Positions 10,100-40,678 of a stretch of 64,000 nt of DNA are shown here, piece after piece. This DNA is from a candidate division TM6 bacterium GW2011_GWF2_28_16. Lineage in GTDB: Bacteria; Patescibacteriota; Microgenomatia; UBA1400; PJMF01. Made by a program: the position numbers and the translations under genes. A model generated the notes under the pieces. The model had not been told where the DNA came from, did no database searches, and worked only from the letters and a program-made list of their open reading frames with translations. Positions within the stretch are counted from its first letter, which is position 1; each line of letters opens with the position of its first letter. The stretch is taken from positions 67,407-131,406 of the forward strand of contig CP011212.1 of assembly GCA_001029715.1 (NCBI GenBank), read 5' to 3'.

Positions 10100-10139
10100 T
10101 GAAAATTATTATATTAGCTATATCGATATGTTTCTAGTG

Positions 10140-10145: not shown

Positions 10146-10152
10146 AGAGCTA

Positions 10153-10904: not shown

Positions 10905-11221
10905 AACATAAACAAAATAAATTTCTAATGATTTTTGACTCAATCATTTATTCCAGCGGACAAATGTTCCTTGGTTTGCTTTTGCATCCTTACCGCAGTA
11001 CTCAGCTTTTAGTTAAGAACAAGCTTTTATTACCATTTATTTTTTATCCTTTTTTAATTGCTTCCTTTTTTTATTTATTTATGCGAATTGATTTGATTTT
11101 GGGTTTTTACCAGAGTAACTTTTTCTTTAAATTTGCTTATCAAACGTTTTTATTCTTTTGTTTTTATTGGCAGATAGCTCTTTTTTATCTATGGTTTCGT
11201 TTTAGCAGGGTTTTTAATTAA
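10901..11221 (+). CDS. hypothetical multi-pass membrane protein
   Basis: Three hydrophobic segments and a 4-nt overlap with the upstream gene. No family recognised. Confidence 0.4.
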   Translation: MKHKQNKFLMIFDSIIYSSGQMFLGLLLHPYRSTQLLVKNKLLLPFIFYPFLIASFFYLFMRIDLILGFYQSNFFFKFAYQTFLFFCFYWQIALFYLWFRFSRVFN

Positions 11222-24444: not shown

Positions 24445-24446
24445 AT

Positions 24447-24740
24447 ATGAATATAACGGAGTATTGGCGCTCAAACAAACAATGGTCTAAATATCTTGGC
24501 AAAAAAGCCAAGGTTTTAGCTGTTTCATTGATGGAAGTGGCGGCTTCAGATCAAACTGCGCTTTTGCCTTATTCTTATTTGCTCCTAGATTTAGAGAAAA
24601 GTAAAATTTCTTTGATGGGTGCTGCTCATCAAGAATTTAAAATTGGTGATGAGGTAGAAATTGTTTTGCGCAAAATTAAAAAAGAGGCTCAGGAAGAGAT
24701 AATCGTTTATGGTCTCAAAGCGGAAAAAATTTATGTCTAG
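24447..24740 (+). CDS. DUF35-type OB-fold protein lacking the N-terminal zinc ribbon (thiolase/HMGS partner)
   Basis: 97 aa with no Cys. The pattern G..AKVLAVS..........LPYSYLLLDLE...ISLMG.......IGDEVEIVLRK resembles the DUF35 OB-fold. It occupies the same position as the archaeal thiolase-HMGS-DUF35 triad. Confidence 0.55.
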   Translation: MNITEYWRSNKQWSKYLGKKAKVLAVSLMEVAASDQTALLPYSYLLLDLEKSKISLMGAAHQEFKIGDEVEIVLRKIKKEAQEEIIVYGLKAEKIYV

Positions 24741-26585: not shown

Positions 26586-26694
26586 GTTTCGAGCCAGAGA
26601 TCGCTTGAATAAATACATTTTTTCACGCGCTCAAATGTCTCTAAACTTAGTTTTCCAAAACGTACTTTATTTAATTAAGCAAATTGAAAAAAAT

Positions 26695-27693
26695 ATGAAA
26701 AAAACAACGGTTCAAGCAGGTAGTGATATCGCTTTTGTTAAGTATTGGGGCAAAAAGGATAAAATCCTACGTTTACCAAGCAATGGTAGTATTTCCATGA
26801 TTTTAGATTCTTTGCAGAGCAAAACTACTGTCGAGTTTTTGCCAAATTTAGCTAAGGATGAGATCATAATAGGTGGCGAAGTTGAAGAGGGAGAGGCTTC
26901 TCGTGCCATTAAACATTTGGACAGAATTAGAACTTTAGCCAAAGAAAAAGGATTGATAGATAAAGATATTTTTGCTAAAGTCGTTTCGGAGAATAATTTT
27001 CCCAAGAGCACTGGTCTTTCTAGCTCTGGTTCTGGTTTTGCTGCTTTGACCATGGCTGCCACTAAGGCTATTGGTTTAGATCTTTCAGAAAAAGAATTGT
27101 CTATTTTAGCCAGGCAAGGATCTGGCTCTGCCTGTCGCTGTGTTTGTGGTGGTTTTGTTGAGTGGTTAGATGGTGAAACTTCTGAAGAATCTTATGCACA
27201 AAGCTTTGCTAAGTCAGAAGATTTTGATATTAGAGATTTAGTGGCGATTGTTTCAGAAGATAAAAAGAATTTAAGCTCAAGTGATGGACATGATTTAGCA
27301 GAAAGCAGTTTGTTTTTTAAGGCTCGTCAAGAAAAAATTGATACCAAGTTAGCAGCTGTCAAAAGAGCAATTTTACAAAAAGACTTTGAAACCCTAGGTG
27401 AAATAGTAGAAGCCGAGGCTTTAGAGTTTCACTCAATTTTATTAACCAGTCAGCCAACTATCTTGTTGTTTTATCCGGGAACGATTGAGGTGATGCAGGC
27501 TGTTCGTCAATTGCGTAAGACTGGTGTGCCAGTTTATTTCACTATTAATACCGGCTTCAATGTCCACATTTTGACTTTACCTCAATATGAGAAACAGGTA
27601 GCTGCTGTTTTGCAAAATTTACCAAGTGTGCAGAAAATTATTATCTCAGGAGCAGGTAATCAGCCAGAATATTTAGAAAAACATTTGTTTTAA
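26695..27693 (+). CDS. mvaD: diphosphomevalonate decarboxylase
   Basis: Shows SDIAFVKYWGKKD, PKSTGLSSSGSGFAAL and GSGSACR. ATG 26695 (MKKTTVQAG..) is preferred; the 46-codon upstream extension in the ORF track has no homology-like content. Confidence 0.85.
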   Translation: MKKTTVQAGSDIAFVKYWGKKDKILRLPSNGSISMILDSLQSKTTVEFLPNLAKDEIIIGGEVEEGEASRAIKHLDRIRTLAKEKGLIDKDIFAKVVSENNFPKSTGLSSSGSGFAALTMAATKAIGLDLSEKELSILARQGSGSACRCVCGGFVEWLDGETSEESYAQSFAKSEDFDIRDLVAIVSEDKKNLSSSDGHDLAESSLFFKARQEKIDTKLAAVKRAILQKDFETLGEIVEAEALEFHSILLTSQPTILLFYPGTIEVMQAVRQLRKTGVPVYFTINTGFNVHILTLPQYEKQVAAVLQNLPSVQKIIISGAGNQPEYLEKHLF

Positions 27694-28109
27694 AAACTTG
27701 GTGTCGAACTGCGACTGGCTTCGTATTGCTTAACTACTTCTTGGCAGTAAATATATTTGCCATATTCAAAAGCTTTTTCAGAAATATTTTGCTCGCCATT
27801 TTCGTCAACTCTGACGGCCTCTTGGACAAATTCTTGAGCAACTCCACCAGCCTCTTTGGCTTTTTCTGTCAAAATCTTAATTTGTGAAACACCATTTTCA
27901 CCTAAATTTTTAAAGTCTTCTTGCTTGAAATCAATTTGATCAAATTCAATTTCTTTATCTTTTTGCCAGGGAAGAGTGATACTTTTTGGGAGGCCTTCTT
28001 CTATTTTGGAAAAAATTTCATTATTAAGCCAACCTTTGTTTTTGGCAAATTTATAGGCAAAAACAACTAGAGCTATGGCGATAATAATGGTAAACAATTT
28101 GCGAAGCAT
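27690..28109 (-). CDS. hypothetical N-terminally anchored protein
   Basis: 139 aa with an N-terminal TM (LFTIIIAIALVVFAY) and no recognisable family. Its start codon lies inside a 9-bp hairpin (28104-28129). Confidence 0.5.
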   Translation of the reverse strand: MLRKLFTIIIAIALVVFAYKFAKNKGWLNNEIFSKIEEGLPKSITLPWQKDKEIEFDQIDFKQEDFKNLGENGVSQIKILTEKAKEAGGVAQEFVQEAVRVDENGEQNISEKAFEYGKYIYCQEVVKQYEASRSSTPSF

Positions 28110-28187
28110 GCTTTTATTTTAGCATGCTTTAAGGAGCGGCTGTGCACCCTGCGGGTACTACCCAGGTTTGCTTTGCAAACTTGGCGG

Positions 28188-28261
28188 TGCGTGTGCTAGG
28201 ACTCGAACCTAGAACCGCCAAGGTATAAGCTTGGAGCTCTAACCAATTGAGCTACACACGC
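28188..28261 (-). tRNA. tRNA-Ile, anticodon UAU
   Basis: The minus-strand sequence folds into a clean 74-nt cloverleaf: acceptor GCGTGTG/CACACGC, D arm GCTC-AATTGGTTA-GAGC, anticodon stem CCAAG/CTTGG with loop C-T-TAT-A-C, variable CGGTT, T arm CTAGG-TTCGAGT-CCTAG, discriminator A. CCA is not encoded. Confidence 0.88.
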
Positions 28262-28303
28262 GTTGATTTGTGTCAGGGGTAGATTTTACTAAATTTATTG
28301 ACT

Positions 28304-29287
28304 TTATAGAAGTAGTAGCAAGAGTGCGCCAACGCCTAGGGCTCCAAGGCCAGCTTTAATGTAGTTCATCCAATCAGCTGGGCCACTTTCAGTAGGAACG
28401 TTGATTGGGCGCACGATGGTGGTTTCACCATTTGCTAATTTGCATTGACTATCTGTAGGATTGACGTCGAGGCGACATTGACCGCTGTAACAAATATGAC
28501 TAATGTTGCTACAGTCAGCATTGGCATTACAAGTTTCGTTGCAGCCAACAGTGGTAATAACGGTGGTAACAGATGGAGTTGGAGTGCTGGTAGCGGTCAC
28601 AGTAGTAGTTGGAGTTACGGTTGTAGTTACAGTAGTGGTTGGAGTAACAGTTGTAGTAACGGTTGGAGTAACAGTTACGGTTGCTTCACAACAAGTTGTG
28701 CTACTAGGATCGGCGACACATTCATCGAGATAATCTTCATCTGCACAGTATTTAACAATGTTTCCATCGCCATCAGTATCTGAAGTAGAAATACAAACAT
28801 AACCATCTTCGCAGTCATCGCTGTTGGTACAGTCTTTTTCACCACAAGAAAGCAAGTTTTCTTCTGGAGCGGTGCAACAAGAGTCAGTGTTTGGATCATC
28901 TATACAGGCTGTTTTATAATCTTCATCTGCACAATATTTATTGCCATTGTCGGCCTCAATACAAATTAAATTACTGCTACAGTCATCGTCACTTTCGCAA
29001 CCACTCAAACCACAGGTAATTTTATCTGGTTCTGTAACTGTAAATTCAAGAGTACAAGTTTGAGTTTTTTCAATATAAGCAGCTGGCTGAGATTGAGGGG
29101 CAGTTGGGGCGACTGGAGTAGTGTCTTGTTTTTGCGTAATTAAGAAAACACTAACTGCGCCACCAACAAAAATTAGTAGACCCAGCAACATAGCGATCAC
29201 TTTAAAATCGCCTTTTTTCTTCAGAGCAGTTTGTCCTTGCTTTGATTTTACGTAGGTCGCTGGTGTTTCAATTTGTTCTATGTTCAT
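28304..29287 (-). CDS. Cys-rich surface protein with N-terminal signal anchor, T/V/P repeat stalk and C-terminal hydrophobic anchor
   Basis: The TM is FKVIAMLLGLLIFVGGAVSVFLI. Two roughly 50-aa modules (CG..(G/D)C..(D/S)DDC.....C......YCADEDY...C..DP.....CC) are followed by (TVTPTTTV)n, a third degenerate module, and the terminal GLGALGVGALLLLLL. Confidence 0.7.
   Translation of the reverse strand: MNIEQIETPATYVKSKQGQTALKKKGDFKVIAMLLGLLIFVGGAVSVFLITQKQDTTPVAPTAPQSQPAAYIEKTQTCTLEFTVTEPDKITCGLSGCESDDDCSSNLICIEADNGNKYCADEDYKTACIDDPNTDSCCTAPEENLLSCGEKDCTNSDDCEDGYVCISTSDTDGDGNIVKYCADEDYLDECVADPSSTTCCEATVTVTPTVTTTVTPTTTVTTTVTPTTTVTATSTPTPSVTTVITTVGCNETCNANADCSNISHICYSGQCRLDVNPTDSQCKLANGETTIVRPINVPTESGPADWMNYIKAGLGALGVGALLLLLL
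28590..28684. repeat. imperfect ~24-nt tandem repeat inside the CDS, encoding (TVTPTTTV)n
   Basis: Repeating units such as ggttggagtaacagttgtagtaac are visible on the plus strand. The wider T/V/P-coding tract spans about 28549-28686. Confidence 0.7.
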
Positions 29288-29291
29288 TATT

Positions 29292-30683
29292 TTAATTCAC
29301 ATTATCTATCATTGTGCTTGGTGAATTATCCACCATTTCCCAAACTTGGCATTCCGTTCCCCAGCAAATACGACCCTGGACAACGTAATCTCCAAAGCTT
29401 GAAATGGTGTAGGAATCAGATACATTTTTAGCAATTGCGCCACTAGTGTCAGTTAGATCTATCCAAGAGCTCATGCCTGGAGCCCAGATTCTAAATTCAT
29501 AATTAAAGTCAACTCCTTGGTTGCCGACAGCAGTGCAACGGAAGCGCACCTCATCTCCGTCCTTGAGACTATCATCATCGTTTGCTTCCATAGTATTGTT
29601 ATTAGCATCTAGCATATCTATGCTGGCACAAACTGGCATAGCCTGGCTTTCACAACAATTGGCAGTGCTTGGATCAGCTGCGCAAAACAATTGATTTTCT
29701 CCTTTGGCACAAATACCAGTCGATTGAGAGTCGACTGTTACTGTTTGACAAGTAAGACCATTTTGACAGTCAGAATTTTGAGTACAACCAATCACTCCGC
29801 AGGCTAAAAGTTCTGGAGGTGTAGTAGGAGTTGGAGTAGGTGTTCTATTTGGAGGATTAGTTGGAGTAGGGGTTGGTGTGGCGCAATCTGAACAATCAGC
29901 TCCAGCATCACCGCATAAAGCATCACAACTTGAGGCACTGCCTATCACCCACCAGCCAGCGCTACATTGGCAACGCATTAAGCCAGATTCTTCACAGTTT
30001 TCGATTACTGAAGTATTTGGATTGTCGCACCAATCTCCGCCCATGGATTGTTCTGTGCACGGATCTTGATCGGTAACGTAACCGCACATGGTATCGCCAT
30101 TGGCGATTATTCTACAGGTAGTACTAACACATGGTCCACCAGCTACGAGTCTATGCAGATTTGGACCGCAGGCCGCCACAGTTGTGGTTGGAGTAACGGT
30201 CGAACCACCCGTGGGTGTACAGGCACCATCAATTACACGATAGCCAGTAATACATCTTCCACTAGTACCATTACAATATGGATCTCCTTCCATACACATC
30301 TCACTGGCTTGTTGGCGGTTGTCTTGATTTTGTCTGCTAAGTATATAACTAGAAAAAACCCCAACTACCAAGAAAAAAACTATAAGTAAGCCAGCCAATT
30401 TATTATTTGATTTCTTTTTCACTTGAAAAGATGGTTTTTGATCAGTTGAAAGTGGATTTTGAATAGAAACAGTTTCAGCACCTGACTTAACTGCCTCTTT
30501 GAGAGGTTCATTATCTGTAATTGTATTACCGCGATATTCTGGTATTTCTGGTTCTTTAGCAAGATCATTCCAAGGGGAATCAATTTTTTCTGGTTCTTTA
30601 ACAAAGTTATCGGAAGAATCCTCTGCCTTGTCTATCTGGCTTTTTTTATATTTAGCTGGTATAAAATCTCTAGGATTATTCAT
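29292..30683 (-). CDS. Cys-rich surface protein (signal anchor, PT-linker, shared Cys module, C-terminal beta-rich domain)
   Basis: About 95 aa of cytoplasmic N-terminus precede the TM LAGLLIVFFLVVGVFSSYIL. Then come a Cys-rich region, a PTPTPTPTNPPNRTPTPTPTTPP linker, and the module CGVIGCTQNSDCQNGLTC...FCAADPSTANCC shared with the neighbouring gene. Confidence 0.7.
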   Translation of the reverse strand: MNNPRDFIPAKYKKSQIDKAEDSSDNFVKEPEKIDSPWNDLAKEPEIPEYRGNTITDNEPLKEAVKSGAETVSIQNPLSTDQKPSFQVKKKSNNKLAGLLIVFFLVVGVFSSYILSRQNQDNRQQASEMCMEGDPYCNGTSGRCITGYRVIDGACTPTGGSTVTPTTTVAACGPNLHRLVAGGPCVSTTCRIIANGDTMCGYVTDQDPCTEQSMGGDWCDNPNTSVIENCEESGLMRCQCSAGWWVIGSASSCDALCGDAGADCSDCATPTPTPTNPPNRTPTPTPTTPPELLACGVIGCTQNSDCQNGLTCQTVTVDSQSTGICAKGENQLFCAADPSTANCCESQAMPVCASIDMLDANNNTMEANDDDSLKDGDEVRFRCTAVGNQGVDFNYEFRIWAPGMSSWIDLTDTSGAIAKNVSDSYTISSFGDYVVQGRICWGTECQVWEMVDNSPSTMIDNVN

Positions 30684-30787: not shown

Positions 30788-31588
30788 ATGAAATTTTTAA
30801 AATTAAATACAAAACAAAGATATTGGCTAGATTTTATTCTTGTGATGACGCAAAAGGAGATAAAGGCAAGGTATAAGAGAACTTTTTTAGGTCTTTTGTG
30901 GGTAATTTTTAATCCATTCTTGCAGATGCTAATAATTGGTTTGATTTTTCAATTTTTTGTTCCTATGCAAATTGAGAATTATTTTCTTTATCTTTTTGCT
31001 GGTCTTTTACCTTGGAATTTCTTTTCAATGGCGCTTTTGCGCGCGACACCTCTTTTAGTGCAGGAAAGATCTTTGATTCAAAAAGCTGCTTTTCCTAGAG
31101 AATTAATGGTTGTGGCAGTGGTCATGGCAAATTTATTTCATACTTTAGTGGCTAGTTCAGTATTTTTGCTATTTTTAGCTTTTCTAAAGACGAGTTTTTT
31201 TGCTGGTGTCCTATTTTTTATATCTAGCTTTTTCTTAATCTTTTTAATACTTATCTTTTTATTATTTTTTACTTTGGCGACTTGTTTAGTTATTTCTGCA
31301 TTATATGTAAAGATAAGAGATTTAATTTTCATTATCCAACTTTCAATTCAATTGCTATTTTATGCTGTGCCAGTTATCTATAGTCTAGAGATGTTACCGG
31401 AATTTTTTAGAAATCTACTTTATCTAAATCCATTGGTTAGCTATATTGAGGTTTTTAGAGCGGCTGCTTTAAATAGTGTTTTCAATTATAAAATGGCAAT
31501 TTATGCCGGTCTTTTTTCCATTTTTTTTCTATTTTTTGCTCTGCAATTTTTTCGAAAAGAAAGCAAAAATTTTGATGATTGGTTTTAA
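30788..31588 (+). CDS. ABC-2 type transporter permease (Wzm/TagG-like)
   Basis: 266 aa with six TM helices. The N-terminal cytoplasmic helix EIKARYKRTFLGLLWVIFNP is typical of ABC-2 polysaccharide/teichoic-acid exporters. Confidence 0.82.
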   Translation: MKFLKLNTKQRYWLDFILVMTQKEIKARYKRTFLGLLWVIFNPFLQMLIIGLIFQFFVPMQIENYFLYLFAGLLPWNFFSMALLRATPLLVQERSLIQKAAFPRELMVVAVVMANLFHTLVASSVFLLFLAFLKTSFFAGVLFFISSFFLIFLILIFLLFFTLATCLVISALYVKIRDLIFIIQLSIQLLFYAVPVIYSLEMLPEFFRNLLYLNPLVSYIEVFRAAALNSVFNYKMAIYAGLFSIFFLFFALQFFRKESKNFDDWF

Positions 31589-31596
31589 ATTTTAAA

Positions 31597-32649
31597 ATGA
31601 AAAACAGTAAAAATAAAAAAATAGCTATAAATATAGAAAACGCTAGTAAACGCTATTTCTTGCGATCTGCAAAAGCTAAGAAAAAAGAAACTTTTTTTGC
31701 CTTAAAAGATATAAATATAAAAATATTTAAGGGAGAAAAAGTAGCTATTCTTGGTGACAATGGGGCTGGCAAGACTACTTTGCTCAAAGTAATGACTGGA
31801 ATAGCAGAACCAACTTGTGGGAAAGTGAATAGTATTGGTAAGCTTGTTTCCTTAATTGATATCACGGCTGGTTTTCATCCTGAGTTTTCAGGTCGTGAAA
31901 ATATTTATTTCAATGGCATTCTTTTAGGAATGAATCTTTCTTCAATTAAAAAATTAGAGCAAGAAATAATTAATTTTTCAGGTATAGAAAAATTTATAGA
32001 TCAAGCTCTTTATACCTATTCTTCAGGTATGGTTTTGCGGCTTGGTTTTTCTATTGCTATTCACAGCGATCCAGATATTTTAATTTTGGATGAGGAGGTG
32101 GTGGTGGGAGATCAGGATTTTCAGAAAAAGGCCTATGATGAAATTGAGAAGATTTTTGCTGAAGGTAAAACCATTGTTGTTTGTAGTCATGTTTTACCTT
32201 TACTGAGTAGACTTTGTGAGCGCTTCATCTGGCTAGATAAAGGCAAAGTAAAAATGGATGGAGGTAAAGAGGTTGTTATTGAATATAAAAAGAATCGAAG
32301 TAAATTGGATATAGAAAAAATTGGCAAGATTAAAAATGAAAAAAAATTTTTTCAATTTCTGCAATCTTTGCCAATCGGAGAGAGGTTTATTGTAGAAGCA
32401 GTCAGTGGCAGTATGGAGCCACTTATCTTAAAGGGCGATGAGGTAAGAGTTGAAAGGTGTTCACTTAAAAATATAAGAGTTGGCAACATAATTGCTTATT
32501 GGAGCGATGAATTTAAAAATATCATTGTTCATAGAATTTATAAGAAAAGCTCTAAGGGGATTTTCTTGACTAGAGGAGATAGTAACTATATTGTAGATGA
32601 GATGCCAGTCACAGAAGATATTTTTTTAGGTAAAGTTATTAATTTTTAA
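31597..32649 (+). CDS. ABC transporter ATP-binding protein (Wzt/TagH-like) fused to a C-terminal S24/S26-superfamily (SipW/Sec11-type) peptidase domain
   Basis: The NBD shows Walker A GDNGAGKTTL, TagH-like AGFHPEFSGRENIY, signature YSSGM and Walker B ILILDE. The C-terminal roughly 95 aa show SGSMEPLILKGDEV, IIVHRIY and TRGDSNYIVDE. No hydrophobic segment lies between the domains. ATG 31597 is preferred over 31579. Confidence 0.8.
   Translation: MKNSKNKKIAINIENASKRYFLRSAKAKKKETFFALKDINIKIFKGEKVAILGDNGAGKTTLLKVMTGIAEPTCGKVNSIGKLVSLIDITAGFHPEFSGRENIYFNGILLGMNLSSIKKLEQEIINFSGIEKFIDQALYTYSSGMVLRLGFSIAIHSDPDILILDEEVVVGDQDFQKKAYDEIEKIFAEGKTIVVCSHVLPLLSRLCERFIWLDKGKVKMDGGKEVVIEYKKNRSKLDIEKIGKIKNEKKFFQFLQSLPIGERFIVEAVSGSMEPLILKGDEVRVERCSLKNIRVGNIIAYWSDEFKNIIVHRIYKKSSKGIFLTRGDSNYIVDEMPVTEDIFLGKVINF
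32350..32646 (+). other. peptidase-like domain of the ABC ATPase (candidate Ser at nt 32410-32412 in SGSMEP, candidate His at 32530-32532 in VHRI)
   Basis: The box order SGSMEP - GD - VHR - GDSN..D matches the conserved boxes B, C, D and E of ER/archaeal-type signal peptidases (S26B). Confidence 0.6.
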
Positions 32650-32934
32650 ATGAGGATAAATATGAAAATATTATATATTCGAGACAATGATCTTTATTTT
32701 AAGGAGGAAGACGGCAAAATATTGGTTTTAAAAAAGAACAAAAAAGAAATTGTGGAATTAAATGAGGTTGGCTCTTTGATTTGGAAAGCTTTGAAGACGA
32801 AGAAGTCTATTGATGCTTTGGTGAAAAAAATAAATTCAGCTTTTGAGGGGGCAGATTCTAAGGAGGTAAAAAAAGATGTTGAGGAGTTTATTCTCAAGTG
32901 TTTAAAAGATTCAATAATAGAAAAAATAAATTAG
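32650..32934 (+). CDS. PqqD-family protein (RiPP recognition element-like)
   Basis: 94 aa with the pattern ..DGKILVLKKNKKEIVELNEVGSLIWKAL..KKSIDALVKKINSAFE....EVKKDVEEFILKCLKDSII. This is the typical PqqD/RRE layout of a beta-strand region followed by a winged helix. Its start abuts the upstream stop. Confidence 0.75.
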   Translation: MRINMKILYIRDNDLYFKEEDGKILVLKKNKKEIVELNEVGSLIWKALKTKKSIDALVKKINSAFEGADSKEVKKDVEEFILKCLKDSIIEKIN

Positions 32935-32938
32935 AGTT

Positions 32939-33922
32939 ATGAAAAAAATTAGCAGACAAGAGTTTGATTATTTAATTAAAAAAAGAAAGCTTGAAGATCC
33001 AAAGAAAATTAAAGCTTTTGAAAAAATACTAAAAGATGAGCGCGGTTATGTTTTCAAAATGCCTAAAAGAGGTTCGAATGTTATTTTAATGGCTTCTGGT
33101 GGACTTGATTCAATGGTTGTTTGGGGAATTTTAATGAAAGAATATGGCTTGAATGTTTATCCGATTACTTTTGACAGAGGTGAAAAAAAAAGAAACAGGG
33201 AATTTGCTGCTTTTAAATATTTTGATAAATTTTATCAGAAAAAATTTCCTAAAAATTATAGAAAATTTTTAGATTTAGACGTAGGACAAGATCAGATTTC
33301 AATAAAAATTGAAGACGGTGTCAAAGATCTACGAGAAGAAACATTATTAAATAATTTTAGAGATGACTTAATGTTTTTTAACCCCTCTTTAGGTGTTTTT
33401 ACTATCTTGCCACTTTTTGCACGTAGTTATGCCATGTATCTAAATGCAATTAAAGGTCTAAAAATTAATACTATTTTTTGTGCCGTCACAGCCAATGATG
33501 GGGAATTAATTGCTCATCAAACCTTAACTTCATTGAGGTCTATTATGTGCAACATGTGTGTTTCAATCAAAGATTATTCTTGGCAGTTTTTGTCAATTTG
33601 TTTAGAGCCAGAAATTAATTCTTTTATAAAGAAATCAGATCTTGTTAAGTGGGGAGAAGATAATAGTTTACCACTAGAAAAATCTTGGAGTTGTTACCAT
33701 GCGAAAAAGTATCAATGTGGTGGAGATAACTGTATTGCTTGTGAAGCGAGAAGAAAAGCATATTTAGAGGCAAAAATAGAAGATAGAACTATTTATAAAA
33801 GCCTTGCAGATCAGGAGATCCTAATTAAAAAAGCGAAAAAAACTTTAAGAAAGTATCTTTCTAGAACAAAAAAGAACTTAATAAACACAGTTAAACGTTT
33901 TTTTGAAGATACGATAAGATAG
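32939..33922 (+). CDS. QueC-like PP-loop ATP pyrophosphatase (divergent, with ~45-aa N-terminal extension)
   Basis: The PP-loop is VILMASGGLDSMVVW, followed by ITFDRGEK (QueC: FDYGQR). The C-terminal four-Cys cluster SCYHAKKYQCGGDNCIACEARR sits at the position of the QueC zinc site. Confidence 0.7.
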   Translation: MKKISRQEFDYLIKKRKLEDPKKIKAFEKILKDERGYVFKMPKRGSNVILMASGGLDSMVVWGILMKEYGLNVYPITFDRGEKKRNREFAAFKYFDKFYQKKFPKNYRKFLDLDVGQDQISIKIEDGVKDLREETLLNNFRDDLMFFNPSLGVFTILPLFARSYAMYLNAIKGLKINTIFCAVTANDGELIAHQTLTSLRSIMCNMCVSIKDYSWQFLSICLEPEINSFIKKSDLVKWGEDNSLPLEKSWSCYHAKKYQCGGDNCIACEARRKAYLEAKIEDRTIYKSLADQEILIKKAKKTLRKYLSRTKKNLINTVKRFFEDTIR

Positions 33923-33964: not shown

Positions 33965-34033
33965 TTATTCAGCTACTACTAAGATAGCTTTTAGATCAAT
34001 AATTCTAAGTTGAGGTTTTTTATATTTTTGCAT
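33965..34033 (-). CDS. un-called 22-codon ORF MQKYKKPQLRIIDLKAILVVAE; candidate RiPP precursor / leader-like peptide
   Basis: Hand-translated from the minus strand. Y4-x-x-P7-x-L9 matches the YxxPxL leader motif bound by PqqD-like RREs. A TTGACA-17-TAACAT promoter ends 9 nt before the ATG. There is no Shine-Dalgarno, and the ORF is very short. Confidence 0.35.
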   Translation of the reverse strand: MQKYKKPQLRIIDLKAILVVAE

Positions 34034-34042: not shown

Positions 34043-34071
34043 ATGTTAGATAATTTTTAAGTTGTTGTCAA
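34043..34071 (-). promoter_or_regulatory. sigma-70-type promoter TTGACA-17 nt-TAACAT upstream of the 22-codon ORF
   Basis: On the minus strand, -35 TTGACA is at 34071-34066 and contains the TGA stop of the methyltransferase gene. The spacer is 17 nt and -10 TAACAT is at 34048-34043. The ATG is at 34033. Confidence 0.45.
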
Positions 34072-34784
34072 CGATTAGATTGCTTTTGAATTATGCCCAG
34101 TCCAGAGCCTAAATAATTTACTTCAATCTTATTTTTGTTTGTTTTTTCTTCCCAAAGTTTCCAGACTCCGTATTTTCCTTCTGGCAAAGTTTCTTTTATA
34201 GAAATATCGTGCAGAAGCATAAGACCTCCTTCATGGAGCATCGGCCAGAAGAGTTTAAAATCTGTTTTTATTCCTTCATAGGAATGGTCTCCGTCTATAT
34301 AGATATATTCATAGCTCATGTTTTTATATTTTTTGGCAAATTTTTGCGTAGTTGTTACAAATAGTTGGATATTATTTTCTAAGCCAAAATTTTTGAAATG
34401 ATCTTTGCCTTCTTGAGTTTTCCAAAAACCTTTTCCGGTCCATGAGCTTTTACCTTCTTTTTTTATTTCATCGCCAAATCCCGCATCAACAAAGTCGACT
34501 TTGCCAAAACCATTGTCATGACAAGCTTGAGCTAGAACAGCTGGTATATATCCATATCGGGATCCAATGCAAAGAATTTTCTTTGCTTTTATTTGTCTGA
34601 GTAGGCCATAGTGAATCCAACCATATCCTAGGTCAGCATTTTTGATATTGGATTCGTGTCCAAATTCATCTGCTTCAAAAAAATTCATTAATTCGGTAAT
34701 TCTTAAATCATTGGAGAGCTTTTTACTTTTTTCTTGCTGATGGAATATTAAATATTTTAAGATTTTTGTTTTGATTCCAAACAT
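34068..34784 (-). CDS. class I SAM-dependent methyltransferase (CmcI / Methyltransf_24-like)
   Basis: Shows ILCIGSRYGYIP (a degenerate G-rich motif I) and YIYIDGDHSYEGIKTDFKLFWPMLHEGGLMLLHDI. Confidence 0.7.
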   Translation of the reverse strand: MFGIKTKILKYLIFHQQEKSKKLSNDLRITELMNFFEADEFGHESNIKNADLGYGWIHYGLLRQIKAKKILCIGSRYGYIPAVLAQACHDNGFGKVDFVDAGFGDEIKKEGKSSWTGKGFWKTQEGKDHFKNFGLENNIQLFVTTTQKFAKKYKNMSYEYIYIDGDHSYEGIKTDFKLFWPMLHEGGLMLLHDISIKETLPEGKYGVWKLWEEKTNKNKIEVNYLGSGLGIIQKQSNR

Positions 34785-34789: not shown

Positions 34790-35917
34790 TTAATTCTTTA
34801 AAATTTCGCTAATTTTTTTAATTTTATTATACCAACTATTTTCAATGGCTAATTGTCTAGCCTCTTTTCCATTTTTTTCAATCCAGCTATTTTTTTCAAT
34901 TGTTTCTATATGCTTTTTCCATTCTTGAGCATTTTTTCCTATTTTAATGAATTTTTTGAATTTATTATCAGTTAGTTCTTTTATTTCTGTAGAAATTATT
35001 GGTTTTTCAAAATAAAGATACTCAAAAGTTTTCATTGGATAGCAATTAGCATTAAATGGATAACTGACGTCATAGGGTATTATGCAGAGGTCAAATTGAG
35101 ATATTAATTGAGGAATTTTATCTTTTTTTTGAGATTCAATTTTTTTTACATTGGAGAAAGATAAAAATTTTTTAATTCGTTTTCTTTTATTTTCTTTTAT
35201 TTTTAAGTCTCTTTTAATTGGTCCAATAAAAGTGAAATTAGTTTCTGGCATTAACTTGACTAAATTTATCATTAGATCGTAGTCAATGCGGTCGCTTATG
35301 GCTCCAATAAAACCAACGTTTATTTTCTTCTTCTTTGAGAATTTTATGGGCGATTTTTCAAACATTTGCAAATCAAAGCCCTGAGACACTAAATGAAGCT
35401 TTTTTTTATTATATTTTGCCACTTCTTTTTTTAGGGTCTTTGAATTAACAAAAATATAGTTTGCTTTATCTAAATTTGTTTTATATTTTTTGAAATCAAA
35501 CCAATCAACTATATCTAAGATCAGCTCTCTTTTTTTCAAGTTATGCTTTTCTATTTCCACTGTAAGATCAAAGATCCACTCATATGTTTTTTTATTTATC
35601 GATAGAAAGAAAATAATAAACTCAGTAATAAAATAATTAATTTTGTTATTTAGTTTTGAAAATAAATCTTTTGTAAAGAGAAATTTAATTTTCTTTGGAA
35701 AAAAGTAAAAATATTTATAATAAAAAATGTCATTTTTTTTACTTAATAAAAAGAATTCTTGTTGAAAAAGCTTTTTCCAACTCAAGGAGAAATTTTTTTC
35801 AATAACTAAGACTTTATTATTATTTTGTGTTAAGATCCGAATAGTTTGTAATATGAAATCGCAAATTTCTTGAGGATTTTCATGAGTGGGAACAATAATA
35901 AAACTATTTCTAAGCAT
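34790..35917 (-). CDS. glycosyltransferase, GT-B fold (GT1/GT4-like)
   Basis: The C-terminal half reads INVGFIGAISDRIDYDLMINLVKLMPETNFTFIGPI ... IIPY......NANCYPMKTFEYL...KPIIST. Confidence 0.65.
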   Translation of the reverse strand: MLRNSFIIVPTHENPQEICDFILQTIRILTQNNNKVLVIEKNFSLSWKKLFQQEFFLLSKKNDIFYYKYFYFFPKKIKFLFTKDLFSKLNNKINYFITEFIIFFLSINKKTYEWIFDLTVEIEKHNLKKRELILDIVDWFDFKKYKTNLDKANYIFVNSKTLKKEVAKYNKKKLHLVSQGFDLQMFEKSPIKFSKKKKINVGFIGAISDRIDYDLMINLVKLMPETNFTFIGPIKRDLKIKENKRKRIKKFLSFSNVKKIESQKKDKIPQLISQFDLCIIPYDVSYPFNANCYPMKTFEYLYFEKPIISTEIKELTDNKFKKFIKIGKNAQEWKKHIETIEKNSWIEKNGKEARQLAIENSWYNKIKKISEILKN

Positions 35918-37435
35918 CGACTATATATTAGCAAAGTTTTTGATTTATTTTTTATCAAAAAAAATGCTTTTTCTAAACAAGAAAAAATTTCTATACTTAT
36001 ATCTATTTTGTTTTTAGTTTCAGTTTTCTTCATTCCAAACAATAAATTTTTATTCATGGTTACTGCAACTTACATACTTTCTTTATTTATCGTGAACAAG
36101 TCAATTTATGAAACCGTCTTTTATGCTTTTTTACCACTGAGTTTAGTTTTAGTTGGTCAAGGTTATTCTTATATTGCTATTCCTGGTGAAGCAATAAAAT
36201 CAGAGGGCTATGAAGAGGGAAAAATTTTAAATTATTTTTTTTCTCCATTTATTGTTTTGTTGATTTTAATTAGTTTTTTATTTTTTGTTAATTTAACTCA
36301 AAAACTTTTTAGAAAAAAATCTTTTATTAAATTTAAGCCATTTATTATTTCTTTTTTATTCTTTTTTCTTTTTTCTTTTTTTTCTGCAATTAGCAATGAT
36401 TCTTTTCCAAAATTGTCCTTTCTTTACTTTTTAAATGATTTTCTATTTTTTATTTCTTGTTTTTTTATTGCGCTGTTTATTTCAGATAGCAAGGAAAAAA
36501 CAAATAAAATGAATTTGATTCTATTAAATTTGATAATTTTATCTGTTTTTTTAGGGATGGTTGTGATTTTTCAATTTATAAACAAATCACCCTTAGGAAT
36601 AATAGCTGAAATGAGCCACGAAGTCCCATTTTTTGGAGGTGGAGCAGATGAAGACAGTTCTTTATTTAGACCGATAGGAATTTTTACTCACGCTAATATT
36701 CTGGCTAACTATTTAAGCAATTTATTTTTTTCTATATTTTTATTGAAAGCTTATTTAATAGAAAAAAAAGAATTACTCATTAATAAAAAGTTTATCAATA
36801 TTGGATTGCTTCTCATTTTTATTTCTATATTCTCAACTCTCTCAAGAGCAGTTTATTTAGCTTTGTTTTTATCAGCATTGATTTATGTGTTTATTTTTAG
36901 AAAAGAAATATCCGCAAGCGGTAAGAAAATAGTTAAAAAAATATTGAAAGTTAAATATTTAATTTTTCTTTTACCTTTGATGTGGAATGTAGCTGTAAGA
37001 ATAATTTACAGTTTCAATAGCTTTTATCAAGAGGGAGGGGTTGGAGTTCGGGAAAAACTAACTATAGAGAGCTTAGCTCTTTTAAGAAGAAATTTTTTTT
37101 ATGGAGTGGGAACTGGCATGTTTATCCCATCTTTGTTTAGGGAAAATCCCATTGGAATCATAAGCGAATTTCCGGAGTCAGTTCATAATGGTATTTTATT
37201 AAATTTAATTGAAAATGGGTTTCTTTCTTTTTTCTTCTTTTTGATGGTTTATTTTTTATTTTTCAAAGCTTTAATAGCTTTAAAAGCTAATAAGAAAATC
37301 ATCGTAATTTCTTTTCTAGCAATTTTTTCCCAATTAGTAATAAGTTTCTTTCATCCATTCACAAACACCGTTACTCTATATACTTTTATTATGATTTTGA
37401 TAATATATGATCTATATGCAATTGAAAAAAAATAA
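35870..37435 (+). CDS. O-antigen ligase/polymerase-like (Wzy_C family) membrane protein
   Basis: Polytopic, with LSRAVYLALFLSALIY and ESVHNGILLNLIENGFLSF (a WaaL/Wzy-type loop and motif). The start is uncertain because the ORF overlaps the divergent gene's 5' end. Confidence 0.65.
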   Translation: MRIFMSGNNNKTISKHRLYISKVFDLFFIKKNAFSKQEKISILISILFLVSVFFIPNNKFLFMVTATYILSLFIVNKSIYETVFYAFLPLSLVLVGQGYSYIAIPGEAIKSEGYEEGKILNYFFSPFIVLLILISFLFFVNLTQKLFRKKSFIKFKPFIISFLFFFLFSFFSAISNDSFPKLSFLYFLNDFLFFISCFFIALFISDSKEKTNKMNLILLNLIILSVFLGMVVIFQFINKSPLGIIAEMSHEVPFFGGGADEDSSLFRPIGIFTHANILANYLSNLFFSIFLLKAYLIEKKELLINKKFINIGLLLIFISIFSTLSRAVYLALFLSALIYVFIFRKEISASGKKIVKKILKVKYLIFLLPLMWNVAVRIIYSFNSFYQEGGVGVREKLTIESLALLRRNFFYGVGTGMFIPSLFRENPIGIISEFPESVHNGILLNLIENGFLSFFFFLMVYFLFFKALIALKANKKIIVISFLAIFSQLVISFFHPFTNTVTLYTFIMILIIYDLYAIEKK

Positions 37436-38301: not shown

Positions 38302-39774
38302 TTATTGGCAATTCCATTTTTCTATTGTTTGTAGCTCGTGCTCCAAAAAACAATTTTCATTTAAAATTTTTCGAACTTCTTCTTTGTTTTTTAAATTATC
38401 TTGATATTCTTTTTCTAGATAAAGTTTTTTTGATTTCAATAGGCTCTCTAAACTACTGAGATTGTTGAGATAAATTCTATTGGTAACTTCGCTATTTTTA
38501 TTTTCATTAGACTTAATATATGTTGAATCATTTTCCATAGTATTAATGCTTAGAGTGTCTAGAAGAATACTTTCTGGAAAATATAAACTTAGCTCATTTC
38601 TTTCTTTGGTGAGATATTCAATTTTTTCTAATCTTTGTTTTGAATAAATACTTTTTAAGTTTGATAAGTTTTGAGGAATCCAAATAATAAACATCAGGAG
38701 AATTATCAAAAAAATATTGTTTTTTTTGATAAATATTTTTTTCACATAAAAAACAAAAAATATGATGTAAAGAATATGCGCTCTTGGAATCAAAACTGAT
38801 ACGTTTGGAAAAATTGTTCCAATTTTATAAATAGATGACAATATTGGAGATAGCAATGAGTAGCTCAAGGTAATTATAAATGGAGTGCTTACTAGCAACG
38901 CTATTTCTTTATTTTTTTTGAGGGTTTTGCTTTTTATGATTTTGGAAGTTATAAAAATTGTTATTAATATGAATATTAAAATTGTTAAAAATTTATTTTT
39001 AAAAATATTAATTCCAATGTTTTCTAAATAAAAACTGCTCAAATTTAAAAGAGTGGGCTTTTTTATCCAATCAATATTATTAAACTGCTGATAATTTTTA
39101 TAAGCACTGATAAGTAAAAATTCAAAAAAATAAATAAGTAGAAAACTTAGATATTGGATTATCTTTTTATTTTTATATAGTAGATAAGAAATTAATGTGA
39201 CCGCTAATACTATAAAACTATAGTCAACATAAATTCCCAGAACTGTTGATAAAATTAGCAAGAATAATGTTTTTTTATTTTTATTATTTAGATAGAGGTC
39301 AAATAAGATAATACTGGTACTACCAATAAAAATTAATAAGCTATACATTCTCAGTTGCCATGATTGTTGAATTATAAGAGGATGAAAACTTATTAAAGTC
39401 GCAAGCAAAACAGCAGAAAAAAAGTCTTTTCTAGTTTTTAATTTATAAAAAGATAAAAATATTATTGCTAGAACTTGAAAAACTAGAGAAGATAAAATTC
39501 TTAAAAATGTTAAATCTCTAGTAAAGAAAAGCAAAAATTTTAGATACAAATAATATCCCCCAGGATGTACATCCTGATTGAAATTAATAGCCATTTCTTT
39601 GAAATTGTATCTTTGAGTAAAAAACAAGGAATATTTTTCATCCAGCCACAGCGGTTGTGTTTTGATCGTGTATAATTTGATTATTATTCCAGACAGAATT
39701 ATAAGAAAAAGAATTATCTTTTCCTTTTTCTGAGGAATGCTATTTATATAAGTTTTAATAGATTTAAGTTTCAT
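38302..39774 (-). CDS. GT-C fold membrane glycosyltransferase (ArnT/PMT, GT39/GT83-like)
   Basis: About 12 TM helices, with the early loop PLWLDEKYSLFF carrying a D-E motif typical of GT-C enzymes. ATG 39774 (MKLKSIKTY..) is preferred over 39828. Confidence 0.6.
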   Translation of the reverse strand: MKLKSIKTYINSIPQKKEKIILFLIILSGIIIKLYTIKTQPLWLDEKYSLFFTQRYNFKEMAINFNQDVHPGGYYLYLKFLLFFTRDLTFLRILSSLVFQVLAIIFLSFYKLKTRKDFFSAVLLATLISFHPLIIQQSWQLRMYSLLIFIGSTSIILFDLYLNNKNKKTLFLLILSTVLGIYVDYSFIVLAVTLISYLLYKNKKIIQYLSFLLIYFFEFLLISAYKNYQQFNNIDWIKKPTLLNLSSFYLENIGINIFKNKFLTILIFILITIFITSKIIKSKTLKKNKEIALLVSTPFIITLSYSLLSPILSSIYKIGTIFPNVSVLIPRAHILYIIFFVFYVKKIFIKKNNIFLIILLMFIIWIPQNLSNLKSIYSKQRLEKIEYLTKERNELSLYFPESILLDTLSINTMENDSTYIKSNENKNSEVTNRIYLNNLSSLESLLKSKKLYLEKEYQDNLKNKEEVRKILNENCFLEHELQTIEKWNCQ

Positions 39775-40678
39775 GGATAAAAAAGTTTCAGTAGTCATTG
39801 TAACAAAAAATAGACAGAATGATCTCACTCATTGCCTCGGTTCACTCCTATCTCAATCCATTGTTTTAGACCAGTTGATTTTAATCGATAATAACTCAAC
39901 TGATAAAACAAAAGAAATTTTCTCTAACTTTGCTAAGAATAGCCAGATACCATGTAAATATGTTTTAGAAAAAAGAAAAGGATATCCTACCGTCTACAAT
40001 CGAGGTTTAAAAGAAGCTAAAAACACTTGGGTGGCATTTATTGATGATGATTGCGTAGCAGATGTTGATTGGTACATGAATATTAAAAAAAGAGTAAATA
40101 AAGAACGCGATGTTAATTTAGCTGCTATTCTTGGTTTTTCAGACACTTATTATCAAACAGATATTTTTTCTTTAGCCACCAATTTCTTTGATTTAATCTG
40201 GAAAAAATCAGGAAGCATTGGAGGAAAAGTAAGAGATTTCGAAATCCTTGATAACAAAAACATTGTTTACAATAAAAACTTTTTAATTAAAAACAAGTTA
40301 AGCTTTGATGAATCTAGAGTAAGGTTTTTCAATGGAGCTAGTGAAGATTGTGATTTAGGTAGACAAATATTTGAAACTAAAAAAGCTGTGGCTATTTATG
40401 ATAGATCAATCAAAATTTGGCATAAAGATCCGGTGAATTTTTCTTGGTTTGTAAAAAAATATTTATCTTCCATTAGTGCTTACTCTTATTATCTAAGTAA
40501 GTGGGGAAATGAATCCCACAATTTAGTTAAAAATAAAATTAACTTTAAAAAAGAACTCATTCTTTTTATTAAGCACCACAGAATTAAATCTTTTAAAAAA
40601 ATAGCTTTATATATTTTGATATATTTTCATGTGGTGCTAGATTATTTCTTTCTCTTGTTTTATAAATCTAAACACTGA
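39773..40678 (+). CDS. glycosyltransferase family 2 (copy A)
   Basis: Shows VSVVIVTKNRQNDLTHCLGSLLSQS, ILIDNNSTD and AFIDDDC (DxD). Confidence 0.85.
   Translation: MDKKVSVVIVTKNRQNDLTHCLGSLLSQSIVLDQLILIDNNSTDKTKEIFSNFAKNSQIPCKYVLEKRKGYPTVYNRGLKEAKNTWVAFIDDDCVADVDWYMNIKKRVNKERDVNLAAILGFSDTYYQTDIFSLATNFFDLIWKKSGSIGGKVRDFEILDNKNIVYNKNFLIKNKLSFDESRVRFFNGASEDCDLGRQIFETKKAVAIYDRSIKIWHKDPVNFSWFVKKYLSSISAYSYYLSKWGNESHNLVKNKINFKKELILFIKHHRIKSFKKIALYILIYFHVVLDYFFLLFYKSKH
39818..40074. repeat. 257-bp block, 100% identical to 41883-42139
   Basis: Compared base by base by eye. Covers the N-terminal halves of the two GT2 genes. Confidence 0.9.
40234..40361. repeat. 128-bp block, 100% identical to 42302-42429
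   Basis: Compared by eye. The offset is 2068 nt versus 2065 nt for block 1, and the blocks are separated by strongly diverged sequence. Confidence 0.88.

Follow-up and report, generated by a model that had tools for sequence, protein, structure and literature searches.

A conserved 22-codon reading frame beside QueC-like and PqqD-family genes: candidate for a new class of RiPPs in Patescibacteria

Is a reading frame of only 22 codons, in an AT-rich genome (33% GC), a gene, and if so, what is made from it? The question arises in a stretch of 64,000 nucleotides (the window) from a groundwater candidate-phyla bacterium. The initial annotation had pointed out an uncalled 22-codon ORF, and the ORF is present as described. 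Both the ORF listing and a direct reading place it at 33965..34033 on the minus strand, with an ATG start at 34033 and a TAA stop at 33965. Its minus-strand codons, ATG CAA AAA TAT AAA AAA CCT CAA CTT AGA ATT ATT GAT CTA AAA GCT ATC TTA GTA GTA GCT GAA TAA, encode the 22-aa peptide MQKYKKPQLRIIDLKAILVVAE. The peptide has an N-terminal MxKYxxP motif, a 16-residue block free of indels that starts at Y4, and a variable three-residue tail (VAE). No gene is called at this position in any of the 10 assemblies that hold the locus. Ten peptides of the family had no Pfam or NCBIfam match when searched up to E 10. A 37-aa gene has been called at the equivalent position of the P0008 locus.

The peptide gene has its own conserved promoter. 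The −35 hexamer TTGACA (34066..34071, minus strand) overlaps the TGA stop codon of the methyltransferase gene (34070-34068). The −10 hexamer TAACAT (34043..34048, minus strand) follows after 17 nt and leaves 9 nt (34042-34034) to the ATG. These elements lie where the initial annotation had placed them, and the promoter, with the near-leaderless geometry that it described, is conserved in relatives. In the relative with an 87%-identical QueC-like protein, both hexamers are unchanged and 6 of the 17 spacer bases are changed. The −35 TTGACA is kept in loci L011, L012, and L045 despite spacer variation, and 14 of 18 family members are preceded by TTGAC[AC]. No Shine–Dalgarno sequence was observed ahead of the ATG of the window peptide, so its transcript is probably leaderless or close to it. 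Where relatives have a longer 5′ region, GGAGG ribosome-binding sites are present instead.

Taken alone, neither the promoter nor the YxxP-type motif is above chance. Within 8 kb, 35 promoter-like sites were found, compared with 36.2 ± 5.8 in shuffled sequence, and three of the sites score 10/12. Six short ORFs across the window carry Y..P.[LIVMF]. Motif and promoter had originally been put forward as arguments that the ORF is not noise. That argument fails for each feature by itself, but the gene is real by conservation; the significance of the ORF comes from the comparative data. The suggested search for small homologous ORFs was carried out. In about 19 distinct loci, among which QueC identity ranges from 87% down to about 30%, it located peptides of 20–29 aa (one of 42 aa) encoded next to QueC-like/PqqD genes. 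The placement of the peptide gene varies: relative to the QueC-like gene it can be convergent or divergent, and it can also lie between the QueC and PqqD genes or immediately upstream of the latter. When the window peptide alone was searched with phmmer against 22,219 six-frame segments (624 kb), the top nine distinct matches were QueC/PqqD-adjacent small ORFs. A peptide HMM, for which noise begins at an E-value of about 0.9, recovered four loci outside the training set (E 4e-9 to 2e-5), each adjoining a QueC-like gene. The proposed dN/dS check gave values of 0.1–0.26 in four of the five computable peptide pairs. The peptide gene is under purifying selection. Judged from these comparisons, the ORF is a genuine, conserved, and never-annotated gene.

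The pattern of conservation within the peptide is specific. The N-terminus carries the [Y/W]xxP motif to which discrete PqqD recognition elements of the lasso type bind. Y and P are the sole invariant residues among 13 aligned members, and experiments have shown these two residues to be necessary for binding to the recognition element (PMC13381572). The 16 residues counted from Y contain no indel across the family. Beyond this block there are 1–5 variable residues, and among the closest relatives the changes are concentrated in the last four residues. The leader motif YxxPxL had been recognized from Y4, P7, and L9. All three are present and the Tyr and Pro hold throughout, but the Leu is not conserved; other members have L, H, D, S, I, or A at the equivalent position. 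Asp or Glu is absent after the motif in 6 of 19 members, which rules out a Glu side chain as a universal modification site. A universal Lys acceptor is ruled out as well, as only the K before the Tyr qualifies.

Downstream of the peptide gene, on the opposite strand, is a gene for a QueC-family PP-loop ATP pyrophosphatase of 327 aa (32939..33922, plus strand; PF06508, E 2.7e-14). It is followed in the direction of the peptide's reading by the gene for a PqqD-family discrete RiPP recognition element of 94 aa (32650..32934, plus strand; PF05402, E 1.2e-11). The initial annotation had stressed the closeness of the PqqD gene. The peptide is indeed genetically tied to PqqD, but the QueC-like gene between them is no mere spacer. 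It is the most constant neighbor of the peptide gene and adjoins it in nearly every locus. The QueC-like protein has an SGGLDS loop and four conserved cysteines, that is, the SGGxDS loop and Zn-binding Cys cluster of QueC proteins; S53-G54-G55-x-D57 and C252, C260, C265, and C268 are invariant in 23 sequences. Its nearest solved structure is Cap9. In addition, it has an N-terminal helical region, a disordered insert (residues 119–153), and a long C-terminal helix. We presume it to be the primary modifying enzyme. The best NCBIfam match of the PqqD protein is the lasso PqqD chaperone model (29.9 bits, below the cutoff of 80). Its best sequence match among solved structures is LppB (9x8z_B, E 0.0024), followed by the lasso B1 proteins. 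It is presumed to bind the KYxxP motif.

The next gene (31579..32649, plus strand; PF00005 with a weak S24 match) encodes a Wzt/TagH-like ABC ATPase that carries a C-terminal archaeal/ER-type signal peptidase I domain at about residues 258–354 (nt 32350-32640, plus strand). The archaeal signal peptidase I model TIGR02228 matches residues 268–354 with 69.3 bits, above its cutoff of 51.85. The domain aligns to SEC11A over the SGSMEP, VHR, and GD(S/N)N motifs, and the Ser/His/Asp motifs are kept in both fused and stand-alone forms. It is presumably a leader peptidase coupled to export. The membrane partner of this ATPase–peptidase is an ABC-2 type permease of the Wzm/KpsM kind (30788..31588, plus strand; PF01061, E 1.5e-15; NCBIfam Wzm/RfbD-like match), which co-occurs in related loci. 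Directly upstream of the peptide gene and on the same strand, as had been observed initially, is a gene for a Methyltransf_24 SAM-dependent methyltransferase (34068..34784, minus strand; PF13578, E 5e-18). It belongs to the conserved gene set and is present in 18 of 28 loci, distant ones included. A sequence search gave no solved relative for it; the protein is presumed to be a tailoring enzyme. An amino-acid decarboxylase gene is found in most related loci and is absent from the window.

The peptide, PqqD, QueC-like protein, and S26 peptidase are linked by neighborhood, by shared presence and absence, and by natural fusions. Peptide, PqqD, and S26 domain are jointly present in 14 loci. All three are missing from loci L015 and L016, where the ABC ATPase has no peptidase domain and the QueC-like, methyltransferase, decarboxylase, and ABC-2 genes are retained. 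Thus, the QueC-like enzyme family need not always act on this peptide. In locus L013, the QueC, PqqD, and peptide genes each occur twice, and the genes for the peptidase-ABC, the methyltransferase, and the decarboxylase once. A C-terminal PqqD domain is present in 38 of 44 long members of the QueC-like family, and Pfam confirmed the QueC–PqqD fusion in all seven that were tested. P0053 is a fusion of QueC with an S24/S26 peptidase.

We consider it probable that the 22-aa peptide is a very short precursor (or scaffold) of an undescribed RiPP pathway with a QueC-family enzyme, a PqqD protein, and an exporter-fused signal peptidase. In such a pathway, the peptide gene's own promoter would give rise to a leaderless or nearly leaderless mRNA, from which the peptide would be translated. 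The discrete PqqD is predicted to bind the N-terminal K-Y-x-x-P as an added β-strand, like the lasso B1 and LppB proteins, and would present the remaining peptide to the QueC-family PP-loop enzyme. This enzyme may then adenylate a carboxylate with ATP and convert it to an amide, or further to a nitrile. The most likely site would be the C-terminal tail, because the α-carboxylate is the sole reactive group common to all members outside the binding motif. The nucleophile could be an amine from the amino-acid decarboxylase of the related loci, and the Methyltransf_24 enzyme may tailor the product. Finally, the signal-peptidase-I-like domain on the Wzt/TagH-like ATPase would cut the peptide as it is handed over to the ABC-2 exporter. 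By analogy with LppA, this cleavage would fall 16 residues past the Tyr and leave VAE. Several observations count against this proposal: the canonical QueC substrate-binding motif is lost in the QueC-like protein, the tail past the conserved block is a single residue (S or T) in three members, no universal side chain exists outside the motif, the QueC-like gene occurs in L015 and L016 with no peptide, PqqD, or peptidase, and the exporter is of a glycopolymer type in a neighborhood rich in glycosyltransferases.

The QueC-like enzyme shares its fold, ATP-binding loop, and four-Cys site with canonical QueC, the preQ0 synthase. It differs in substrate motif and in context. Canonical FDYGQRH aligns to FDRGEKR, so that the YxQxHxxE substrate motif is broken and its essential Tyr (as defined with the other QueC motifs in PMC13329287) is replaced; this test covered YxQxHxxE and not VPxRN or YPDC. 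The protein scores 35.3 bits against TIGR00364 (cutoff 150.3), and no queuosine genes are present in the gene context. With Cap9 (type IV CBASS) and QatC it shares the PP-loop SGGxDS and the Zn-binding Cys cluster; in this comparison too, it does not conserve the deazaguanine-binding motif. A precedent for a QueC fold that couples an adenylated carboxylate to a polypeptide amine is given by Cap9. Unlike Cap9 and QatC, the enzyme here is paired with a recognition element, has a 22-aa peptide as its predicted substrate, and carries the extra helical regions and the disordered insert. An anti-phage Qat/CBASS system is excluded, as PADLOC gave a generic QueC match only, with no partner genes and no system; the match to the QatC model is at E 5e-4 (19 bits, cutoff 280). 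PQQ biosynthesis is excluded as well: the window cluster has no radical-SAM gene, the peptide has no E-x3-Y, and the PqqD protein scores 29 bits against TIGR03859 (cutoff 46). For the peptidase, the peptidase-containing ABC transporters offer a comparison. These bacteriocin exporters carry a C39 cysteine peptidase at the N-terminus of a half-transporter. Both arrangements fuse a leader peptidase (here a presumed one) to an ABC export machine and so couple, or here would couple, cleavage with export. Here, however, it is an S26 serine peptidase on the soluble ATPase subunit of a Wzt/TagH-like ABC-2 system, and the peptide has no double-glycine leader.

Four other explanations were weighed. The first is that the ORF is open by chance, or that it marks a conserved non-coding element between convergent genes, for instance a terminator or a regulatory RNA. 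It is very short, lies in AT-rich DNA, has a motif and a promoter that are each at chance level, and is predicted by no gene caller. Against this, it is the amino acids that are conserved, encoded by differing codons, between loci whose QueC proteins are only 30–60% identical and in varied positions and orientations. The length is constant, start and stop codons are retained, synonymous changes exceed the expectation for neutral drift, and relatives have ribosome-binding sites. That the site is a structured RNA or a terminator instead of a gene is rejected, with no Rfam match and an unremarkable RNA fold (z = −1.0). This explanation can be practically dismissed. The peptide could also be a canonical lasso precursor, with a B1-bound leader, B2 cleavage, and an Asn-synthetase-like cyclase that forms a threaded lariat. 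As in lasso systems such as those of fusilassin (TfuA/TfuB1) and of TbiA/TbiB1, a leader of the type [Y/W]xxPx[L/V/I/F/A], fitted by Y4/P7/L9, occurs with a discrete PqqD gene close by, and binding is predicted. The N-terminus of the peptide, KKYxxPQLxK[VI], is close to the TfuA leader, and the only PDB sequence match of the peptide profile is the fusilassin leader KKKYTAPQLAKV, which at E 0.14 is suggestive only. An ABC exporter is present, and the overall logic is shared, with a leader protease and a recognition element alongside a carboxylate-activating, ATP-dependent enzyme of the PP-loop superfamily. The decisive parts are different. There is no Asn-synthetase-type (PF00733) cyclase, the QueC-type enzyme with its Zn Cys4 site being the sole SGGxDS protein of the window. 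Pfam searches gave no transglutaminase-like B2 cysteine protease among the neighbors, where the only protease-like domain is of the serine S26/S24 type. The PqqD protein misses the cutoff of the lasso model by a wide margin. The absence of a Thr at position −2, already raised as a caveat in the initial annotation, is borne out across the family; there are at most 12 residues after the motif and only the few variable ones past the block, far too short a tail for a threaded lariat. No 7–9-residue ring acceptor is present, and the six members without Asp or Glu could not form the isopeptide bond. The lasso-type reading offered initially thus does not stand, and we regard a lasso precursor as extremely unlikely.

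Among described systems, the closest is the linear polyphosphorylated peptide (LPP) family of Bacillota (LppA/LppB/LppS; Popov et al., Nat Commun 2026, PMC13381572), with a QueC-like ATP pyrophosphatase here in place of the kinase. In that family, a recognition element and a SipW-type leader peptidase have been shown by experiment to act on a YxxP leader (PMC13381572). The window has the same combination at the level of sequence: a PqqD-type discrete element whose nearest solved relative is LppB and whose binding to the YxxP leader is predicted, and a signal peptidase I of the archaeal/SipW type that keeps the Ser/His/Asp active-site motifs, here as a domain fused to the transporter ATPase. 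Both kinds of cluster lie within polysaccharide loci (PMC13381572), and the part of LppA that runs from the Tyr to the cleavage site measures 16 residues, as does the indel-free block here. Genes of the NTP_transf_5 type occur only in distant branches of the QueC-like family. Actual membership in the LPP family is nevertheless refuted by gene content and is very unlikely. Domain searches of the window cluster gave no HprK-like kinase, NTP transferase, or MsbA-like pump; a QueC-family PP-loop ATPase takes the place of the kinase and an ABC-2 Wzm/Wzt-type exporter that of the pump. The peptides are 20–29 aa long in contrast to 35–200 aa in LPP precursors, they differ from YxxPxVLxHQxIxFETxxS past YxxP, a conserved Ser at core position 3 is missing from their tail, and the hosts are Patescibacteria. 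The remaining explanation is that the peptide is real, recognized by PqqD, and cut by the signal peptidase, while the QueC-like enzyme, methyltransferase, and decarboxylase act on a cell-envelope glycopolymer or on a small molecule that leaves by the same Wzm/Wzt-like transporter; the peptide would then be exported in linear, perhaps glycosylated, form, or would serve that glycan system as an accessory or regulatory factor. The transporter matches Wzt/RfbE and TagH exporters best, genes for glycosyltransferases, Wzy_C, and epimerases surround the locus, and glycosyltransferase, Wzy_C, and sulfotransferase genes recur in distant loci. Some neighboring genes may serve a glycan and not the peptide. 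Loci L015 and L016 have the QueC-like, methyltransferase, decarboxylase, and ABC-2 genes with neither peptide nor PqqD, and PF06508 is known to include a branch of PP-loop sugar amidotransferases, WbpG among them (PMC13329287). Arguing the other way, the QueC–PqqD and QueC–peptidase fusions tie the enzyme to peptide-handling parts, as does the near-constant adjacency of peptide and QueC-like genes, and L013 duplicates QueC, PqqD, and peptide together, but not the transporter, methyltransferase, or decarboxylase. We consider a glycan or small-molecule substrate rather unlikely.

The RiPP pathway with a QueC-family enzyme is the explanation that we prefer. A more specific version of it is possible, and we put it forward only tentatively: the system may be the first RiPP class defined by a QueC-family ATP pyrophosphatase. 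Nearly the whole peptide would then be leader or scaffold, and the last 1–5 residues, with the C-terminal carboxylate, would become a small amide or nitrile that is cut off by the exporter-borne signal peptidase. The logic would be like that of mycofactocin, PQQ, or pearlins. The product might end on, or act together with, the cell-surface glycan of Patescibacteria. A literature search for QueC with PqqD or with RiPPs gave nothing relevant and no paper on the combination, and neither PqqD nor RiPPs come up in a 2026 survey of PF06508. We describe the system as a candidate for a new class of RiPPs in Patescibacteria.

The QueC fold has a known role in queuosine synthesis; a second one, in anti-phage protein modification, has been known since 2025. 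If the proposal is true, the maturation of a ribosomal peptide guided by a recognition element would be a third and new role for this fold. To our knowledge, signal-peptidase-type leader peptidases were not described in RiPP pathways until 2026; the peptidase here would be a second, independent case, fused to an exporter ATPase. The locus also points to a blind spot of annotation, since precursors of 20–29 aa are invisible to standard pipelines and to the databases derived from them. With five or six genes and a 22-aa peptide, the system is small enough to be tractable by heterologous expression and mass spectrometry. Patescibacteria have very small genomes and few recognized biosynthetic clusters. 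A conserved peptide-modification system beside envelope-glycan genes would point to an overlooked chemistry of the cell surface or of interactions in these bacteria.

The small ORF occupies 33965..34033 on the reverse strand and reads from ATG through 22 codons to TAA (product MQKYKKPQLRIIDLKAILVVAE), exactly as the initial annotation had described it. The promoter elements claimed for it are also present in the sequence: a -35 hexamer TTGACA (34071-34066) and, after a 17-nt spacer, a -10 hexamer TAACAT (34048-34043), both on the reverse strand, the latter ending 9 nt before the ATG. The ORF does follow a Methyltransf_24 gene on the same strand (34068-34784), the stop codon of which is overlapped by the -35 hexamer. 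Four forward-strand genes converge on it: an ABC-2 permease (30788-31588), a Wzt/TagH-like ABC ATPase (31579-32649), a PqqD-family protein (32650-32934) and a QueC-like protein of the PP-loop ATP pyrophosphatase type (32939-33922; PF06508). The PqqD assignment was borne out (PF05402, E 1.2e-11). The pattern Y..P.[LIVMF] also turns up in six other short ORFs of the window, and promoter-like sites number 35, compared with 36.2 in shuffled sequence. By themselves, the motif and promoter of the ORF do not exceed chance. The identical locus occurs in ten assemblies, and the ORF is absent from the gene calls of all ten. In the region of the ORF, Rfam gave no match and the RNA fold is unremarkable.

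The initial annotation had called for conservation and dN/dS to be checked among relatives, and both spoke for the ORF. Related loci (L-numbers) were gathered through homologues of the QueC-like protein. Wherever a related locus encodes PqqD, a homologous small ORF nearly always adjoins that gene, and 19 distinct peptides, the window member included, were found beside QueC-like/PqqD genes. The others are MQKYKKPQLKVIDLKAILIVSE (L011), MQKYKKPQLKIIDLKAILVEIE (L045), MKKYIKPRLKKVILKALLARSE and MKKQLKKYVKPELKKNKVKINFAFAASK (L013a and L013b, the two peptide genes of L013), MKKQVKKYSKPELTKNKVKINFAFAIAK (L061), MKKYNKPVLKKAKIKISLAVAEAI (L021), MKKYNKPVLKKAKVKISIAAVEMN (L022), MKKYEAPKHKTIGIEALLFTTG (L014), MKKYEAPRDKKITLKVVLAETP (L018), MKHYTAPAHKPIALKVVLVS (L019), MKKYSAPKHKRIAIKVVLAS (L059), (M)KRYIAPKHRKIALKVVLVT (L060), MKKYHKPQDKRTKIKVVLYEIY (L062), MKYIVPQDIRVEILAVLVQED (L020), MKKKYTTPSSKRAKIKALLAVAE (L046), MKKKSQVKAVKYQKPSDTRSKITVMLVET (L051), MKKRLKKKYSRPKIKKVSPKIFLLTSS (L048) and a 42-aa peptide (L063). 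The small ORF may be convergent with or divergent from the QueC-like gene, between the QueC-like and PqqD genes, or directly upstream of PqqD. Because gene order and orientation vary in this way, the linkage is not inherited synteny. When 22,219 six-frame segments were searched by phmmer with the window peptide as sole query, family ORFs took the first nine places among the distinct hits. An HMM of 12 members recovers four later-fetched loci at E 4e-9 to 2e-5, with noise from about E 0.9. Only Y and P are invariant. The 16-residue block starting at the Tyr has no indels in any member; the tail behind it is variable and 1-5 residues long, except in the 42-aa member, where it has 15. Differences between close relatives are concentrated in the last four positions. 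Of five gene pairs for which dN/dS was computable, four gave 0.1-0.26, and only the closest, L011 and L045, was higher, at 1.1. The small ORF is almost certainly a real, unannotated gene. At the P0008 locus, the calls of one metagenome gene caller do include a 37-aa gene that overlaps the 3' end of the QueC-like gene from the other strand, where L013 has its small ORF; upstream of this 37-aa gene come a FemAB-like gene and a PLP decarboxylase.

Expression signals are also retained. In a relative with an 87%-identical QueC-like protein, TTGACA and TAACAT are both unchanged, despite 6 differences in the 17-nt spacer and 3 in the 9 nt preceding the ATG. TTGAC[AC] lies upstream of 14 of 18 family members. 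The near-leaderless geometry is found in the window clade, L013a and L018; in members with longer 5' regions (L014, L019, L048, L059, L060 and L062), a strong ribosome-binding site of the GGAGG type precedes the start codon by 5-9 nt.

The C-terminal 90-100 residues of the ABC ATPase pass the NCBIfam model TIGR02228 for archaeal-type signal peptidase I (69.3 bits; cutoff 51.85). This domain aligns with the human SEC11A catalytic subunit at SGSMEP (Ser), VHR (His) and GD(S/N)N (Asp), motifs kept in seven fused and four stand-alone versions in related loci. The QueC-like protein retains the SGGxDS loop and four Cys; the canonical substrate motif FDYGQRH (roles of these motifs: PMC13329287) is replaced by FDRGEKR. 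Its family comprises about 246 representatives at 50% identity among 1.84 billion proteins (profile E <= 1e-30). One member, P0076 (481 aa), additionally carries a fused NTP pyrophosphatase domain of the Ham1p-like (ITPase) type; this might point to a substrate derived from a nucleotide in its branch of the family.

Peptide, PqqD and peptidase domain are jointly present in 14 loci; L015 and L016 have none of the three, and the ABC ATPase there likewise comes without a peptidase domain. L013 has two each of the QueC-like, PqqD and peptide genes and one each of the peptidase-ABC, methyltransferase and decarboxylase genes, which marks the first three as the specificity-setting trio. Peptide subtypes parallel PqqD subtypes, consistent with co-diversification. 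Of the 44 family members with a length of at least 390 aa, 38 carry a PqqD domain at the C-terminus; all seven QueC-PqqD fusions tested score above the Pfam gathering threshold, and one member is a QueC-S24/S26 peptidase fusion. Methyltransf_24 is nearly universal among related loci. Most also encode an amino-acid decarboxylase, either PF00282 or an unrelated Orn/DAP/Arg type (L015, L046 and L059); the window has none. In L015, a radical-SAM/SPASM pair precedes the QueC-like gene and another SPASM enzyme is encoded behind the ABC genes (4906-6921 and 10023-11018), with three small genes (77-110 aa) upstream.

The lasso-type reading held only for the leader. The N-terminal motif is that bound by discrete lasso recognition elements, and the only PDB sequence hit of the family profile is the fusilassin leader KKKYTAPQLAKV. 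A lasso precursor is ruled out, however, by the lack of a cyclase, a B2 protease, Thr at -2 and a ring acceptor. The closest described system is the linear polyphosphorylated peptide (LPP) RiPP family (PMC13381572, May 2026). Its parts are YxxP leaders, LppB as discrete recognition element and, as leader peptidase, LppS, a signal peptidase of the SipW type with Ser/His/Asp; the clusters lie inside polysaccharide loci. Experiments showed that binding depends on YxxP, and the recognition element is required to present the cleavage site, 16 residues after the Tyr (PMC13381572). Among proteins of solved structure, LppB matches the window PqqD best by sequence (E 0.0024). The defining genes of LPP, however, encode an HprK-like kinase, an NTP transferase and an MsbA-type pump; its precursors measure 35-200 aa, and reports of it come only from Bacillota (PMC13381572). 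None of these features applies here. NTP_transf_5 genes in distant QueC-like branches, some fused to the peptidase, hint at shared ancestry of parts. Single proteins joining an S24/S26-like peptidase region to NTP_transf_5 adjoin QueC-PqqD fusion genes in L023 (9290-10618, +) and L025 (9178-10353, +), and this transferase type occurs in paeninodin-like lasso and LPP clusters.

Several neighbouring genes deserve mention. Three genes (139, 327 and 463 aa; 27690-30683, -) without Pfam or NCBIfam match adjoin the ABC-2 transporter; the largest of their products (463 aa) is rich in Cys and Pro and has an anchor-like segment at its N-terminus. Counterparts recur by the same system in relatives only 31-65% identical (L013 2609-5619, L021 51-1181, L022 1-2603, L061 26-1156 and the peptide- and PqqD-free L016, 8752-12256), and the set may be a further component or target. 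Just upstream of the locus, Pfam labels mark mevalonate-pathway genes (21100-27693, +): HMG-CoA synthase-like, thiolase and three GHMP-kinase/diphosphomevalonate-decarboxylase-like genes. Two paralogous family-2 glycosyltransferase genes (39773-40678 and 41844-42746, +) share an identical stretch, seen as the same 16-aa out-of-frame ORF MISLIASVHSYLNPLF (39819-39869 and 41884-41934). A Wzy_C gene (O-antigen ligase/O-oligosaccharyltransferase family; 35870-37435, +) recurs near the system in distant loci (L011, L024, L046, L059 and L062). Ser or Thr is the last residue of several peptides, so the exported peptide might conceivably be glycosylated.

The main rival explanation assigns the enzymes to a glycan and leaves only PqqD and the peptidase to work on the peptide. 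It draws on the module of QueC, methyltransferase, decarboxylase and ABC-2 transporter, which occurs without the peptide module in L015 and L016, and on the glycopolymer-type transporter and neighbourhood; both count against a peptide pathway. The natural QueC fusion proteins, on the other hand, argue against this rival. Our literature search found no paper linking the QueC family to RiPPs or PqqD. The Cap9 study showed that the QueC fold can couple an adenylated carboxylate to a polypeptide amine.

We propose that PqqD binds K-Y-x-x-P and that the QueC-like enzyme would activate a carboxylate with ATP, forming an amide (or nitrile) on the peptide. The site is probably the C-terminal tail, most simply the alpha-carboxylate, because six members have no acidic side chain and there is no universal Lys outside the motif. 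The amine might come from the decarboxylase, the methyltransferase would tailor the product, and the peptidase domain would cut the peptide during export; if the LPP register holds, the cut would fall after V19 and release VAE. The peptide is very probably the substrate of an undescribed pathway of recognition element, QueC-family enzyme and S26 peptidase, and we regard the pathway as stated here as fairly likely. Further repurposed enzymes of such a kind were predicted by the Cap9 study.
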